From assembly GCA_965207065.1 (NCBI GenBank), contig OZ242260.1, positions 4,096,001 to 4,160,000 of the forward strand: DNA of 64,000 bases, given 5' to 3'. The position numbers and the translations under genes were made by a program. The stretch comes from a bacterium. Its GTDB lineage: Bacteria > UBA8248. The notes below the pieces were generated by a model that was given only the letters and a program-made list of their open reading frames with translations, was not told the origin of the DNA and made no database searches. Below, in pieces: positions 41,194-53,845 of the stretch (positions within the stretch are counted from its first letter, which is position 1; each line of letters begins with the position of its first letter).

Positions 41194-42477
41194 GTGGGGA
41201 TAAGAAAATTGTCTGACGCGAAAAAGCACTTGTTCAGATTAACAACACTCTTCACTCTTCTCGCCTTGGGAATGGGCTTGTCCGGCTGTGCCGATTCCCT
41301 TCTTCCTAAGGTGAATGAAAGTTCCGTTAAAATCCTGAAAACCGCCATTGAAGTGGAATTTACCCAACTGACCAGAGAATTCGACCAACTCGACCAAAGT
41401 GGCGATCTGGAGCTTTGCGCTCCCCTGCGATTCGGAGTAGCGCGTTATGCCGTTTATCAGGCGGTAGAGGAGAAAAGAACCGCCTCTATGGCGCAACTGA
41501 CCCGATTCATCATGAGAGCGCGGGCGGCCATCAAGCGCGCAGAAGAGAAAATGCAAAAAAAACAATGTGTCGATAAGGATGGGGATGGACTCACTGACCT
41601 TACGGAATACCGGAAATATAAAACGAAACCTGATAATTTCGACACCGATGGGGATAACGTTTCCGATGGCGAGGAAATCCGCCGGTTTCGAACCAACCCC
41701 CTCAAAGCGGATACGGATGGCGATCTGCTCGACGATGGGGACGAGATATCACGCGGCTTGAGTCCGCTCCTCGCCGATAGCGATGGGGACGGATTCATCG
41801 ACGGCATCGAAATCGCCAATGGTTCGAACGCGCGCGATGCGTGTTCTCAGCCCCTGGATGCGCAAAATCTCGACCGTCTGCGCGAATGCGGCCCAAAACA
41901 GGTTCACGCCAAACCGGTTCAAGTTCAAACACCGCAAATACGAACTCCGTTGCCCGCACCCAAAGTAAAACAAAATTCGAAGAAGAAAAGGAAGCTCAAG
42001 GCGCAAAAACCGAAAACGAAGCCCTCCCCCAAGCCTCCCGGAGAACGAGCCTCAAACATCGAAAAAGTAAATTTCAAAGAGAGAAAAACAAAACCTACCC
42101 TCAATGGCAACGGCTCGCATCCTGAACGGAAAACTCAGGTGACTCGAAACCGCCAGGCCAGCGTGGACACTCCTGCAGACAAAGAGTCTCAAAATGAGAG
42201 CATAGATGCGAAAAGAAATCATCTTCCTGAGAAACCACAGAATGCAAATCTACACATCTTGAAGAAAGTGAATGCAGAGGGAGTACAATCAATAACAAAT
42301 CCCGAAGAATCACCGAGCCGCACACCCAATACGGCTTTACTCATGGAAAACCAAGGAAAAACGGATAATCCAGCTACGGTTCCGCCGACACCCGAACCTC
42401 CAAAGCCAGCGAAGAAAAAGAACTTTCCTTCTACGCATGAAGCCTTCCCCTCCACGATTTTTTTGAGGTTATGGTAG
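41194..42477 (+). CDS. Lipoprotein with Ca-binding DxDGDG (thrombospondin type 3-like) repeats and a long Pro/Lys-rich tail
   Basis: Lipobox LSGC; four D(T/S/K)DGD repeats. Confidence 0.8.
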   Translation: MGIRKLSDAKKHLFRLTTLFTLLALGMGLSGCADSLLPKVNESSVKILKTAIEVEFTQLTREFDQLDQSGDLELCAPLRFGVARYAVYQAVEEKRTASMAQLTRFIMRARAAIKRAEEKMQKKQCVDKDGDGLTDLTEYRKYKTKPDNFDTDGDNVSDGEEIRRFRTNPLKADTDGDLLDDGDEISRGLSPLLADSDGDGFIDGIEIANGSNARDACSQPLDAQNLDRLRECGPKQVHAKPVQVQTPQIRTPLPAPKVKQNSKKKRKLKAQKPKTKPSPKPPGERASNIEKVNFKERKTKPTLNGNGSHPERKTQVTRNRQASVDTPADKESQNESIDAKRNHLPEKPQNANLHILKKVNAEGVQSITNPEESPSRTPNTALLMENQGKTDNPATVPPTPEPPKPAKKKNFPSTHEAFPSTIFLRLW

Positions 42478-47850: not shown

Positions 47851-49206
47851 TTACTCACAGGCCTCGGTATACTTTAATATCGCCTGAGCGGCATTTTCCC
47901 CGCTTCTCACCGCACCCTCCACGGTGGCCGGCAGGCCCGTGCGAGTCCAGTCTCCAGCCAGAAAAAAACCTTCTATCGGAGTTTTCGTATCTATCCGGTA
48001 CCTTTGCTCCGCGACTCCGTTCCCCCAGGTGGCCGCACGCTCCCGCACCACCAAAACATCCCGAATGGGGTTAAGGGGAATCATGCGTTTCAGGCAATCA
48101 CGTGCAGACGACTCGATGGTCGACCGTTCTGCGGATGCGATGGAATCCTCCGCTCCGGCCAACAGACACACCAGATTCTTCACGTCTACTCCACTTGCCT
48201 CCGGACGAAACAGCCAGTCCCACTCCTCATTAACAATCGCTTCGAAAGGAGGCCCCTCATCCGGTTCTTCAAGCCAGCAATATGCGCTGGCAATAGGCCC
48301 CGGGCGCAACTTTCCCAGATTCGAAAAAGGCGCCCGCTCACCGAGTTCTCCACCCAGCAGTCTGCCAAGGGCGTCGGGCGGCACAGCGGAAATGACTGCG
48401 GCAGCACCCAAGGTCTCGCGCTCTTTCAAAATCACACCTTTGATTGTCGAATCATGGACTTCAAGACCGACTGCGGACTGCTGAAGCCTCACTTCTCCAC
48501 CGAGTTGACGGATGCGTTGAGCCGCTCTGTTCGCCCACATAGTACCCAATGCCTTCATCGGGACTCCCAGGGCGGCTCCTTTCGGCCCATCGGAGAAGGC
48601 TTCCCGAATCACTGCCTTGAACAATGCCGCACTTCCCTCCTCCAATGGCAAGTTCAACACCGCGCGCGCAAACGGCTCCCAAAACCAGCGCACCGTTTCA
48701 TCCTTCTGGCCCAGTCGCCCCAGCATTTCACTCATGGATTCATTCGGGTATTCATCATTCGAATTGGAAATAATCTTTGACAGACCTATCAGAAGATTCA
48801 ATTTCGCCCATAACCGGGGGCCTCGCCATTTGAGCAAGCCCCGGAGTTGCGCCAAAACTCCTCCATCCTCCGGAAATGACAATTGCGTCCGTCTGGGTGA
48901 CTCCTCTTCCCGAATCCGGTAACTCACCTCCAGAGAGGGTGAGAACAAAACATCATCTACGGCGCCCACCCTCTCCAGCAATGAGCGCAGCGCCGGGTTG
49001 GCTGCCATGAACAAATGCGGGCCCCAGTCCAACTCCAGGCCCGTGGATGAGTGCATGAAACTGCGTGCCCGGCCACCGAGAAGCTTCCCCGCCTCGAGCA
49101 CGATGACTTTGACCCCCGACTCGGCAAGACGCAAGGCGGCGGACAGGCCCGCTGCTCCGGCTCCGATGATGATAACCGGCCTCTCGAATCCGCCAAGCTC
49201 AGTCAT
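47851..49206 (-). CDS. hpnE: Hydroxysqualene dehydroxylase (HpnE-like FAD enzyme)
   Basis: GAGAAG, LGGRARSF, ERAAT, LAGDWTRTGLPATVEGAVRSG; adjacent to hpnCD. Confidence 0.88.
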   Translation of the reverse strand: MTELGGFERPVIIIGAGAAGLSAALRLAESGVKVIVLEAGKLLGGRARSFMHSSTGLELDWGPHLFMAANPALRSLLERVGAVDDVLFSPSLEVSYRIREEESPRRTQLSFPEDGGVLAQLRGLLKWRGPRLWAKLNLLIGLSKIISNSNDEYPNESMSEMLGRLGQKDETVRWFWEPFARAVLNLPLEEGSAALFKAVIREAFSDGPKGAALGVPMKALGTMWANRAAQRIRQLGGEVRLQQSAVGLEVHDSTIKGVILKERETLGAAAVISAVPPDALGRLLGGELGERAPFSNLGKLRPGPIASAYCWLEEPDEGPPFEAIVNEEWDWLFRPEASGVDVKNLVCLLAGAEDSIASAERSTIESSARDCLKRMIPLNPIRDVLVVRERAATWGNGVAEQRYRIDTKTPIEGFFLAGDWTRTGLPATVEGAVRSGENAAQAILKYTEACE

Positions 49207-51366
49207 TTACGCTTCCAGGAAACAGCGAAGCGCTTCTAGTAGTTTTTCCCTGGACTTCAAAGAGGGGCGATAATGCATGTGCCGAAAATGATTCTTCTCC
49301 ATCTCACTCAGAAGTCTCCGATAAATCCGGCCCATGATTCTGGCGGGAAGAAGATTCTCTTTTTTCTCATGGCGCAAGGCTTCATTCGCCCGCTCATAAT
49401 ATATACGCGCCTGATGCGCCAAGAACCGAAGAAGGCTCAAAACCTGAGAAGTATCATTTTTGTCTTTCAAATCGGAGACGGATACTCCATATTTCTCCAT
49501 TTCACTTCTCGGAATATAAATACGCCCCTCCTCGGCATCTTCCCAAACATCTCGCAAAATGTTCGTCAACTGCAGCGCTCGTCCCAAACAAACAGCGTAT
49601 TCTTTCGCAAATTCCGATTTCGCACCAAAAATTCCCAGGCACGCCAGCCCTACTGCGGATGCCACTTTGTCACAATATTTTTCAAGGTCCGAGAAATTTT
49701 CAAATCTGCTTTCTTCCAAATCCATCGCCACGCCATCACAAATCGCCCGAAAATGCTCCGGCGGCAAGTCGAATTTCCGCGACGCCCAAGAGAGTTCCCC
49801 GATTATCGGGTGGGATGGACTTTCCTCGCCAAACCGATCCAGCGCCTCTTTCCATTCGGCCAGCGAGGTTTTTTTGCCGGATATCTCGCCCGGTTCATCG
49901 GCGATGTCATCGGCCATGCGGCAATATGCGTAAACTGCTGTAATGGCGCGCCTTTTCTCCGCAGGTAGGCTGAAAAAAGACAGATAAAAATTCGACCGGC
50001 TCGCCCGAATGAACCAGCGGCAGTAAGCGCGGTTCAATGTTTCTTCTGCCTGCCGATCCACATTGGATTCGAGTCGATAGACCGGGCGAAACGCAGCAAG
50101 CAGTGACTTGGCCTTATCCCGGCCATTCAAAAGCGGCGAGCCTGCGCAAACATTCCAATTCTCACGGGAAACCGAGTCCAGCGCCGCCACGCCGCCACGC
50201 CAAATCGCACGAAGTTCACGGCCCAATGCGCCGCGGGTCCGGTACAAAAGGGGCAGGCCTTGCTTGAAGAGGTGCTTTGTCCTCTTTATCTGAAAGACCA
50301 GGAACGCTCGCAGTTGAGGCGTCGCTACGTCCGCGATCAAATCTTCTTCCGAGACGGCGAACCGTTTCATCTCATCCTGCGGCATGTAGACGATGCCGCG
50401 TTCGGCATCTTCTTTCACGTCTTGTAAGTGATTCGCAATCTGCAATGCCGTGCAGATGGCATCCGACGCGCGAAAGGCCTCGTCATCACGTATCCCGTGC
50501 AGCATGAGAACGATTCTTCCGACAGGATCCGCCGATCGGCGGCAATAATCGAGCAAGGCTTCATAGTTCGGGTACCGGAGAACCGTGACGTCTTGTTTGA
50601 ACGCCGAAAGCAGATCCAGAAAAGGTTTTAAGGGCAATCCGAATTGTTGAATCGTGTGGGAGAGCGCTATGAAAACATCTGTTTCAGCGACACCCTTCTC
50701 AGCCAATAACAGCTTCTCTTCCCATACATCCAGGCGGGCAAGGCGCTCATCAATGGGCCTTGTCGTATCCGCGATATCATCGGCGCCTCTGGCGAATGCG
50801 TAGACCGCAGCCACGTGCGGCCTTATCTTCTTCGGCAGCAACTTCGAGGCGACGGGAAAATTCTCGTAGTGGCCGACTACGATTTTCATGCACGTATCAT
50901 AAGCGGCGCTTAAATCAGCCTCAGAACTATTCTTAACCTCTTTGCCTGAACCCTTTATTCCCTCGCCATTCATGAGAGATTCTATCAACTGCGCATCCGC
51001 CGGCAGGAATTCAAAATCCCCCAATGAGGCAGGATTCACCCATTCATGTCCCGCCACTCCCAAATTCTTCGCCACTCCCCTTTCCCATTCGCAACCATAA
51101 AAGCGAAGATGAACATCTCTATCGGGATAACGGTGGCGGGTCTCCCAATGAAGACTGCCAACGCGCACTTCGATGCCCAGTTCCTCGCGAATCTCCCGTT
51201 GCAAGGCTTCACAGGGTTCCTCACCATCTTCTATTTTACCGCCGGGAAACTCCCAAAAACCCGGCATGTGACCGCCCGCCGGACGCTGACAGATGAGAAT
51301 ACGCCCCTCGTTCCAGACAATACCGGCGACGACGCTTAGCTCTGAAGCGGCAGCTTCGCTCTTCAT
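49207..51366 (-). CDS. Nudix (MutT-like)-HpnC-HpnD triple fusion squalene synthase
   Basis: Nudix box GGKIEDGEEPCEALQREIREELG; HpnC HYENFPVAS/ADDIAD; HpnD SNFYLSF/CRMADDIAD/LQLTNILRD. Confidence 0.88.
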   Translation of the reverse strand: MKSEAAASELSVVAGIVWNEGRILICQRPAGGHMPGFWEFPGGKIEDGEEPCEALQREIREELGIEVRVGSLHWETRHRYPDRDVHLRFYGCEWERGVAKNLGVAGHEWVNPASLGDFEFLPADAQLIESLMNGEGIKGSGKEVKNSSEADLSAAYDTCMKIVVGHYENFPVASKLLPKKIRPHVAAVYAFARGADDIADTTRPIDERLARLDVWEEKLLLAEKGVAETDVFIALSHTIQQFGLPLKPFLDLLSAFKQDVTVLRYPNYEALLDYCRRSADPVGRIVLMLHGIRDDEAFRASDAICTALQIANHLQDVKEDAERGIVYMPQDEMKRFAVSEEDLIADVATPQLRAFLVFQIKRTKHLFKQGLPLLYRTRGALGRELRAIWRGGVAALDSVSRENWNVCAGSPLLNGRDKAKSLLAAFRPVYRLESNVDRQAEETLNRAYCRWFIRASRSNFYLSFFSLPAEKRRAITAVYAYCRMADDIADEPGEISGKKTSLAEWKEALDRFGEESPSHPIIGELSWASRKFDLPPEHFRAICDGVAMDLEESRFENFSDLEKYCDKVASAVGLACLGIFGAKSEFAKEYAVCLGRALQLTNILRDVWEDAEEGRIYIPRSEMEKYGVSVSDLKDKNDTSQVLSLLRFLAHQARIYYERANEALRHEKKENLLPARIMGRIYRRLLSEMEKNHFRHMHYRPSLKSREKLLEALRCFLEA

Positions 51367-51381
51367 TCCGTCTCCATGGGT

Positions 51382-52191
51382 TCAATACTGCGCATCTTGA
51401 CTCTGCGCATCTCCGATAATCGGTCTAAGAACGCTTGAAAATACAATAGGTTCCGCCAGGGGCACCGCTTCGGCCAATTCTTTTTCATTCTCAAAATACT
51501 CGCCCGGCAGGACCAATCCCGGCATCCGCAGCTTGATCGAATCCTCTGAAAACGGCCAAGGAGATATTTCCAGATCGTCCATCTTAGCGGTTTTCACTTT
51601 CAAGCCACTTTGCCTCAAGGGGTGGATGGCGTCATCGGGTGGGGTGATTTCCGGCGCCCGGCACGCCAATAGGGATAACGTATCGCAAACCCTCAGCAAA
51701 GACACGGAATTTTCGATTGCTCCTTTGTGCCCCGCTTCAATCAGGGGGTCCAACATTTTCTGCCGTTTCGATTCAGTGTGTATGAACCCGTTCAGTACTC
51801 TGGACACTTCACCGGGCGCACCCCTTCTCCCTCCCTCGGCGAGCGAAGAGAAGTGAATGCTGACCAGATAACCAGAAAACGGATGAAATGACGCGCAGGA
51901 ATCAATTCCCTCCGACCAAATCTCCACCGCCTTGTCCGCCGTTATGCCGAAAAAACTGTAGGGCAGTTTCGTCATTTCATCCCATTTCGGCGTAGCATCC
52001 GAGCGGCACCATCCAACGTCATGGTTATCGATGGCGAACAACACTTTTTCTCTGAGCTCATCCGGCGGTGAGGGAAGCGATTCTATTCCTATCCATTTTC
52101 GCGCAATCGTACCCGCGGCCCGGGCGTGGTCATGTTGACTGATGAGGCGAACATGGTTATCTCGCGGACAAACTATCATTTGAGACACCAA
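51382..52191 (-). CDS. DUF3891 family protein
   Basis: LISQHDHA, AIDNHDVGW, LVSIH, CDTLSL, PWPF. Confidence 0.8.
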   Translation of the reverse strand: MVSQMIVCPRDNHVRLISQHDHARAAGTIARKWIGIESLPSPPDELREKVLFAIDNHDVGWCRSDATPKWDEMTKLPYSFFGITADKAVEIWSEGIDSCASFHPFSGYLVSIHFSSLAEGGRRGAPGEVSRVLNGFIHTESKRQKMLDPLIEAGHKGAIENSVSLLRVCDTLSLLACRAPEITPPDDAIHPLRQSGLKVKTAKMDDLEISPWPFSEDSIKLRMPGLVLPGEYFENEKELAEAVPLAEPIVFSSVLRPIIGDAQSQDAQY

Positions 52192-52408: not shown

Positions 52409-53845
52409 ATGAATCAAAAAAATTTCCCGCAGGATCCCGGTTCAGTCGGCCTCACGAAAACGCGGACCATAGCCCTTCCCGAGCCGTTTCGGACCGATTC
52501 CGGCGAAACATTGCCCGAAGTTCAGGTTGCCTATGAAACATATGGAGAACTCTCTCCCAGCGCAGATAACGCCGTTTTGGTCATCCATGCACTTACGGGC
52601 GACGCGCATGCTGCCGGCTTCCACAACCCAGACGACCCGCGCCCAGGCTGGTGGGACCCGATGATCGGTCCCGGCAAAGCCATCGATACCCGAAAATACT
52701 TCGTCGTCTCCTCGAACAACCTGGGGGGATGCTCGGGCACCACGGGGCCCACTACGATCAATCCCGCTACGGGCAGAGCCTACAACACCGCTTTTCCCGT
52801 CACCACGGTGGAAGATACCGTTCGCGTCCAAAAACTGCTTCTCGACCATCTGGGCGTCAAACGCCTCAAAACGGTCATCGGCGGCTCGCTCGCCGGGATG
52901 CAAACCCTCGAATGGGGCCTGCGCTACAGCGATTTTTGCGATTCCGTCATACCGGTCGCCGGAGCCGCGCGCCTGGACCCGATGGGAATCGCATGGGACA
53001 AAATCGCCCGCAGGGCCATCACTGCCGACGGCGCATGGAAAGACGGCGACTACGCCGCTGGAGAAGGACCACGCAAAGGTCTGAGCGCGGCGCGCATGCT
53101 GGCCCACATCACCTATCTGAGCCGAGGGATCATGTGGGAGAAATTCGGCCGCGAGATCAGGGATAAGGACAAAATGCTGGACGACATCGACTCGCGTTTC
53201 GAGGTGGAGAGCTACCTCGATCACCAGGGAGACAAATTCGTCGATCGTTTCGACGCCAATTCGTATTTATATATCTCCCGTATGATGGATCTTTATGATG
53301 CCTCCCTGGGTTTCGAGAGTCTCGAGGCGTCGCTGTCCCGGCTGAAAACCAAGTGCCTGCTTGTATGCTTCATTTCCGACTGGCTCTTTCCGCCGGAAAG
53401 AAGCATGGAGATCACTCAAATCCTCCAAAAACTCAGGCATGAAGTGGAGTTGCATACGGTGGAATCCACCTACGGGCACGACGCGTTCCTGGTGCAATAC
53501 GACAAGCTCACCGAAATCGTCGGTGGTTTTCTTGAAAGGCTCGAAAACGGAGGCCCGATCGGCATCAACGCGGCACCCATACCCCGGGGATGCAAGCGGC
53601 TGGTTCTCACTGTGCCGGGCCATCTCGTGCAGAAACCCATTTTGTGGGAACTCGGCCGAAAATACTCGTTTTCCATCAACATTATGAGAAGTGAGCTGGA
53701 TGCCCAATCCGGGTGGCAGGTATGCGAATTCGATGGAAACGAAGAGGAAATCGCACAAGCCGTGACGGAACTCCGGGAAATGGGAGTGTGGGTCGACCCC
53801 GGGGGGCATGACGCCATCGACCATGACCGCGCCGAAGTGGTATAA
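52409..53845 (+). CDS. metX: Homoserine O-acyltransferase with C-terminal NIL-like domain
   Basis: HALTGD, GGSLAG, FDANSY, YGHDAFL; extra ~80-aa C-terminal domain. Confidence 0.92.
   Translation: MNQKNFPQDPGSVGLTKTRTIALPEPFRTDSGETLPEVQVAYETYGELSPSADNAVLVIHALTGDAHAAGFHNPDDPRPGWWDPMIGPGKAIDTRKYFVVSSNNLGGCSGTTGPTTINPATGRAYNTAFPVTTVEDTVRVQKLLLDHLGVKRLKTVIGGSLAGMQTLEWGLRYSDFCDSVIPVAGAARLDPMGIAWDKIARRAITADGAWKDGDYAAGEGPRKGLSAARMLAHITYLSRGIMWEKFGREIRDKDKMLDDIDSRFEVESYLDHQGDKFVDRFDANSYLYISRMMDLYDASLGFESLEASLSRLKTKCLLVCFISDWLFPPERSMEITQILQKLRHEVELHTVESTYGHDAFLVQYDKLTEIVGGFLERLENGGPIGINAAPIPRGCKRLVLTVPGHLVQKPILWELGRKYSFSINIMRSELDAQSGWQVCEFDGNEEEIAQAVTELREMGVWVDPGGHDAIDHDRAEVV

Follow-up and report, generated by a model that had tools for sequence, protein, structure and literature searches.

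The window, the whole stretch of 64,000 nucleotides of genome G000 that was analysed, carries a gene in which a Nudix domain, HpnC, and HpnD are joined in one polypeptide of 719 amino acids. This triple fusion is real and old, and the architecture is restricted to one family. The Nudix domain is probably a housekeeping nucleotide sanitiser that became fused onto the neighbouring squalene enzyme, with two separate jobs carried by one polypeptide. As described in an earlier note on this DNA, the minus-strand frame has no internal stop, its translation contains both HYENFPVAS and SNFYLSF, and hpnE starts at the base next to the stop codon of the fusion (Table 1). The domains named in that note, a MutT-type Nudix, HpnC, and HpnD, agree with the NCBIfam and Pfam matches. 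NCBIfam has a MutT-like stretch at aa 9–135 and its best TIGR03464 (HpnC) and TIGR03465 (HpnD) stretches at aa 165–426 and 454–716, and Pfam gives NUDIX/NUDIX_4 plus two SQS_PSY stretches.

Table 1. The fusion gene, its parts, and the adjoining genes, in positions of the window.
Feature	Position	Strand	Basis
Nudix-HpnC-HpnD fusion ORF, 719 aa	49207..51366	-	translation, NCBIfam, Pfam
MutT/NudG-type Nudix domain, aa 9-133, Nudix box intact	50968..51342	-	profile and residue comparison
Nudix-HpnC linker, aa 134-152, variable in length and sequence	50911..50967	-	alignment, pLDDT
HpnC domain, aa 153-428; predicted to convert PSPP to hydroxysqualene	50083..50910	-	NCBIfam, alignment, structure match
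HpnC-HpnD linker, aa 429-445, helices with high pLDDT in the model	50032..50082	-	predicted structure
HpnD domain, aa 446-717; predicted to convert 2 FPP to PSPP	49216..50031	-	NCBIfam, alignment
hpnE, hydroxysqualene dehydroxylase, start abuts fusion stop	47851..49206	-	TIGR03467
DUF3891 gene, 15 bases upstream of fusion	51382..52191	-	Pfam

In the locus comparison, the DUF3891 gene is the conserved upstream neighbour of the Nudix, fused or free alike. At 52409–53845 of the window is an alpha/beta hydrolase (homoserine acetyltransferase-like, as read from the translation) with a C-terminal NIL domain, which is syntenic across the family. At 41194–42477 there is a probable lipoprotein in which a calcium-binding motif of DxDxDG type recurs (a weak TSP3_bac match, below cut-off) and a long low-complexity tail.

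The earlier note pointed to sister genomes as a check on the fusion, and it is indeed kept in 21 of the 22 other genomes of the same genus in the whole-protein search, which took in 61 genomes. Among 14 genomes of other genera there are nine full-length fusions, two that are cut by contig ends, and three with the Nudix alone. When the Nudix alone is searched for class-wide, there is exactly one match per genome in all 42 family genomes, the frame being long in 37 and 137–147 aa in the other five. Elsewhere in the class, a second family, represented by one genome, has one match, and two further families have no match in eight genomes. The fused members span at least eight genera and the family is a clade on the RpoB tree, which would date the fusion to about the family's ancestor. 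Named database homologues carry the labels Nitrospinota or 'Candidatus Tectomicrobia'. No second Nudix-SQS lineage is present among the 91 matches to the Nudix-HpnC junction (2067 candidates of 395–1259 aa), and no family genome was found that has a free Nudix plus intact hpnCD.

Genomes hold at least 637 loci that match HpnC/HpnD, and the survey covers the 80 best of these, one from a family member and 79 from outside the family. Among these best 80, HpnC and HpnD are in one frame at 5/79 non-family loci, as they are in many database proteins, and a MutT-type gene is near hpnC/D at 3/79 (many flanks being short), in all cases as an unfused gene of Acidobacteriota that lies on the strand opposite hpnC/D. 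In these three (L103, L109, L117; Vicinamibacteria in two of the titles) the divergent mutT is about 1–1.5 kb from hpnC. The mutT gene of L109 comes after a mutY-like gene, so labelled from reading the translation, that is split over two frames; the MutT-type protein of this locus also has Asp at position 119.

The five family genomes with a free Nudix are G009, which is nested in the same genus as G000, and four of genus g5; the locus is the same in the four of the five that were inspected. In G009 the DUF3891 gene is followed by a 137 aa Nudix that ends where the linker began, and hpnCDE is gone; the arrangement is the same in the three g5 genomes inspected. There is no SQS_PSY gene in any of the five (90–99% complete). 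In the one outgroup genome from the same order, G037, the Nudix is a gene of its own, and its stop codon overlaps the hpnCD start; hpnC and hpnD are joined there, hpnE follows, and the deposited HpnCD protein begins at the overlapping start codon. This arrangement in a single genome is likely to represent the state before the fusion. Two other genomes of the class (G039, G040) have separate hpnC, hpnD, and hpnE, and no Nudix.

In the case of g5, the trees favour a split from the fused state (SH-aLRT 94–97), which would suggest that this genus passed through the fusion and later split it; a basal g5 is not rejected by the AU test (LG+G4, 10 rows, p-AU 0.106), and the Nudix tree does not place g5. 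On either placement, with G037 as the outgroup, g5 would have lost hpnCDE and kept the Nudix. Relatives of G000 thus appear to preserve stages on either side of the fusion, G037 being the likely earlier one and G009 and g5 the later ones.

In each of the 37 family genomes searched, TIGR00586 (mutT) has exactly one match, always the fusion-type Nudix domain. The domain of G000 scores 95.5 bits against a cut-off of 97.9, which orthologues pass in 6/37 family genomes; the other four of the five Pfam Nudix matches in G000 score no more than 37 bits. On the NudG-type profile the domain scores 89.9 bits against a cut-off of 156, and Asp119 is present, but H28 and D77 are MutT-like. Its top NCBIfam match is PRK08999, and its best solved matches, in sequence and in fold, are BdRppH, MutT-like proteins of R. 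rubrum and Bartonella, NudG, MutT, and MutT2. As to a Type 1 IPP isomerase, there is no IDI model among the profile matches, and the Nudix box is complete and of the hydrolase kind.

Compared with E. coli MutT, the G000 domain keeps R23, H28, F35, D77, and R78, with Tyr for F75 and Asp for N119. Among 30 fused domains, a count that leaves out G010 (missed by the motif search), R23, F35, K39, E44, R52, E53, E56, and E57 are each present in 30/30, the residues of the MutT Nudix-box test (E53, E56, E57, K39) among them. H28 and R78 are present in 28/30, D77 in 26/30, and Tyr75 in 30/30. The Vibrio equivalents of R23, H28, F35, K39, and position 78 are described as 8-oxo-dGTP contacts, and a Tyr at position 75 is placed beside O8 (PMC4338371); most of the 8-oxo-dGMP contacts given there are among the conserved residues. 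The same source calls Asn119 key for 8-oxoG affinity; this residue is absent from the fused copies, which have Asp in 30/30. A related structure, 3GWY, is reported to prefer 5-substituted CTPs (PMC5158307).

Asp119 and Gly98 did not arise through the fusion, since the nearest free homologues, many of them called MutT in their source records, have these residues as well (118/118 and 99/118, respectively). C26, W74, and L121 (the position of P116 in MutT) are present in 30/30 fused copies and also in G037 and G009, and are rare in free homologues; they differ in the copies of the hpn-less genus g5, which is a long branch. This set is a weak hint of an altered pocket or surface. The free Nudix of g5 (L033–L035, 2.1-Mb genomes) has Asn119, in 3/3 copies, and Pro116, like E. 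coli MutT and unlike every fused copy.

That the domain is the sole MutT-type gene, has the MutT pocket residues, and is kept where there are no squalene synthases argues for the sanitiser, and in view of the same three observations the FPP/PSPP diphosphatase that the earlier note had envisaged as built into the enzyme is poorly supported. The N-terminal domain, as the organism's only MutT-family enzyme, would hydrolyse damaged (d)NTPs independently of HpnCD; as its main substrate, 8-oxo-(d)GTP is somewhat more likely than 5-modified or oxidised (d)CTP. HpnD would meanwhile condense two FPP to presqualene diphosphate (PSPP), HpnC would convert this to hydroxysqualene, and the abutting HpnE would make squalene. 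The ancestral operon may have resembled that of G037, with the order mutT-hpnCD-hpnE and a stop codon overlapping a start codon; a minor change of the frame or of the stop, in the ancestor of the family, would then have captured the Nudix from its upstream position. Selection on both parts and the low cost of a flexible tether would account for the survival of the fusion, and lineages that gave up squalene synthesis would have retained a free-standing Nudix gene.

Some observations count against this reading. The domain falls slightly short of the mutT cut-off and has Asn119 replaced by Asp, as in NudG. The classical GO system appears incomplete, because mutM/fpg was not found in any of G000, G001, G009, G026, and G037; mutY was found in 5/5 genomes tested and is present in the four of these named genomes that were tested for it. 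The C26/W74/L121 set also weighs on this side, as does an outlying close pair, G029/G033, in which the Nudix dN/dS is 0.76 at a dS of 0.07, with very few changes. The presence of UbiX means that retention of the Nudix could reflect a supply of DMAP.

It is rather unlikely that the Nudix also or mainly hydrolyses prenyl diphosphates, trimming FPP or leaked PSPP or converting DMAPP to DMAP for UbiX, with the fusion kept by placing the hydrolase where FPP is used. Chrysanthemyl diphosphate is the C10 analogue of PSPP. It is hydrolysed by TcNudix1 (PMC7194074), and AtNUDX1 dephosphorylates GPP and FPP in vitro (PMC8857926). In E. coli, DMAPP is converted to DMAP by NudB, F, I, and J, with MutT and NudG not named in the accessible part of the source (PMC12359138); these DMAPP-active enzymes match the domain poorly (NudI 40 bits; NudB and NudJ E >1e-4). 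The copies associated with hpn genes do have C26, W74, and L121 in common, but by sequence and by fold the domain belongs with MutT, NudG, and MutT2, it retains the nucleobase-pocket residues, and it is the only MutT-type gene of family genomes. UbiX, which needs DMAP, is present in 5/5 genomes tested, including four that are hpn-less. The Nudix does not occur only with the pathway that it would serve, being kept in 5/5 genomes without any SQS_PSY gene, although a role in making DMAP would fit the UbiX of the four hpn-less genomes; four other Nudix proteins in G000 could supply DMAP. While the fusion persists in at least eight genera, the 91 junction-search matches include no second Nudix-SQS lineage, and hydrolysing the substrate of a neighbouring domain would be wasteful. 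Co-option of a MutT-type domain for prenyl diphosphates as well as nucleotides, whether as an FPP/PSPP valve, a proof-reader, or a source of DMAP, is thus unlikely. If true, one chain would tie nucleotide sanitising to isoprenoid flux and give a bacterial squalene synthase its own Nudix control, a bacterial case of such control within a head-to-head prenyl synthase.

In 136 pairs of 17 genomes of the main genus, dN/dS is 0.116 for the Nudix, 0.090 for HpnC, 0.105 for HpnD, and 0.256 for the linker. By these ratios the three domains are under similar purifying selection, and the freed Nudix copies likewise (in G009, dN about 0.16 and dS about 1.0; g5 pairs, about 0.12–0.15). An AlphaFold2 model of the fusion (107 rows) has a mean pLDDT of 90.6 and a pTM of 0.77. 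The Nudix-HpnC linker has pLDDT <50 at aa 136–146, none of its 19 columns is invariant, and its length differs widely between genera. The HpnC-HpnD junction is helical and confident in the model, and because this linker is ordered there, a rigid HpnC-HpnD unit is plausible; the model would suggest that HpnC and HpnD pack together and that the Nudix is held on a tether.

It could be proposed that the fusion itself has been selected with no shared substrate, either for 1:1 co-expression of two oxidative-stress or membrane functions or to hold a sanitiser at the membrane. The long frame in 37/42 family genomes, with none having a free Nudix and intact hpnCD, and the linker dN/dS of 0.26 in the main genus would be in keeping with this. 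Splitting, however, would need a stop, a new start, and a ribosome site, which means that persistence would be expected without selection too; given that the genes are also separate in the outgroup G037 and that linker length varies so widely among genera, selection for the fusion is improbable.

The whole fusion stretch is intact, without indels, in contigs (not raw reads) of two DNA-type runs from two studies. Twenty listed variants are inside the ORF, of which 14 are synonymous and none is a stop, and seven more variants are outside the listing. Contigs of RNA runs overlap parts of the fusion gene, none of them bridging the complete Nudix-HpnC linker. In the alignment, no start-codon position conserved across genera was found ahead of HpnC that would allow an internal restart, and in the scan for promoters and terminators the signal is near chance. 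That the frame comes from misassembly, or that G000 recently lost a stop codon by chance, is as good as ruled out by the match of the independent runs' contigs to this frame and by the fused frames in 21/22 same-genus genomes and nine genomes of other genera, there being nothing in its favour in G000 and a sole hint from the short database protein P0166. P0166 is 141 aa, is 84% identical to the Nudix domain, and ends within the linker on a 6.8-kb contig; it may be another split or a frameshift. The chance loss of a stop codon between mutT and hpnC that the earlier note had considered is therefore upheld as an ancient origin, but not as a recent event, given the family-wide fusion and the purifying selection.

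The HpnC and HpnD models score well above their cut-offs (TIGR03464, 465.8 against 250.45 bits; TIGR03465, 450.1 against 278.6 bits), each score being a sum over both SQS domains. The HpnC domain matches 63/63 of the HpnC columns that are ≥90% conserved (alignment A2), has HYENF and two Asp-rich motifs intact, and is 40% identical to its best solved match, 4HD1. The HpnD domain matches 52/53 conserved columns and has the DDxxD and NxxRD motifs. These intact motifs suggest that both domains are catalytically active, and a natural single-chain HpnC-HpnD would be material for testing PSPP channelling. For hpnE, TIGR03467 scores 290.6 against a cut-off of 283.05 bits, and the gene was found in 31/37 family genomes.

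Two sister genomes, G007 and G001 (L020, L021; also L045, L046), both 99–100% complete, keep the triple fusion and have no hpnE. Their HpnC domains have changes in common at conserved columns (Y167P, A195T, A199S, D320N), with none in HpnD, and the same variant recurs as P0025 and P0026; it may be either decay or a new product. A CrtM-type switch, considered from the Cys in 'FCR' of these HpnC domains, was rejected, since 4HD1 carries the Cys too. Other combinations of these enzymes are seen in P0082, a 1034 aa database protein with SQS_PSY and amino-oxidase domains joined, which is probably HpnC-HpnD-HpnE, and in L121, L138, and L142, where HpnD and HpnE are in one stop-to-stop frame in which separate starts are possible.

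The best match to squalene-hopene cyclase in G000 scores 267 against a cut-off of 431 bits and is an oxidosqualene-cyclase-type gene, so there is no shc-type cyclase. Indeed, any triterpene cyclase match is present in just 6/37 genomes of the family (f1), though most keep HpnCDE, which raises the question of what the family does with squalene when most members have no cyclase. A carotenoid sink was rejected, there being no crtI/crtN-family gene in 5/5 genomes. The matching G000 frame (C1:1536835–1540389, 1184 aa) combines squalene epoxidase and oxidosqualene-cyclase-type domains, and long-frame cyclase matches are present in 5/23 genomes of the genus, that of G000 alone having been examined. 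After the frame come a GPP34-P450 fusion and an MMPL/sterol-sensing transporter, and the region (C1:1532217–1540389; L175:8218–16390), which sits among integrase- and transposase-like ORFs as read from translations, is likely to be a sterol cassette. No description of a squalene epoxidase-cyclase fusion was found in the accessible text of PMC4919349.

Fused HpnCD has been published for Acidobacteria subdivision 2, some Actinobacteria, and Alphaproteobacteria (PMC5462960). As in that report, hpnC and hpnD are here in one frame with HpnC first, and hpnE is next in database loci; unlike there, a Nudix domain is present, none being mentioned in the accessible part of the paper. The acidobacterial HpnCD feeds hopanoids (PMC5462960), whereas canonical shc is present in 1/37 genomes of the window's family. 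In the HpnCDE pathway HpnD converts two FPP to presqualene diphosphate, HpnC converts this to hydroxysqualene, and HpnE makes squalene (Pan et al. 2015, via PMC7306690). All three activities appear to be encoded together here too, with catalytic columns intact, but two of the three enzymes are in one chain with a Nudix. The HpnCD fusion is known, and the added Nudix is apparently the new part, in that the Nudix-HpnC-HpnD form was not found in the literature searched, which took in few subscription journals; the lineage could be listed in the genome tables that accompany PMC7306690 and PMC9907078. Databases say only 'squalene synthase HpnC', which hides the sole MutT-type gene of the family.

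Like E. coli MutT and NudG (Orf135), M. smegmatis MutT2, and Bdellovibrio BdRppH, the Nudix domain has the Nudix box with R23, H28, F35, D77, and R78. It differs from E. coli MutT in having Asp for Asn119 (as NudG), Gly for Glu98, and Leu for Pro116, and in being joined to an isoprenoid enzyme. The fold and catalytic box are the same as in AtNUDX1, RhNUDX1, TcNudix1, and E. coli NudB/F/I/J, by which such activity would be possible; these prenyl-diphosphate hydrolases are stand-alone and are not among the best matches of the domain. On the preferred reading, that of a housekeeping sanitiser welded to its neighbour, this would be a clean case of a misleading 'Rosetta stone' fusion. The junction-search matches show MutT-like domains in many other architectures. 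As in the PRK08999 family, where the partner is presumably a thiamine-phosphate-synthase-like domain, and in MutY with a C-terminal MutT-like domain, a MutT-type domain is joined to an unrelated enzyme; unlike in those fusions, the partner here is HpnCD, and the combination is seen in one family only.
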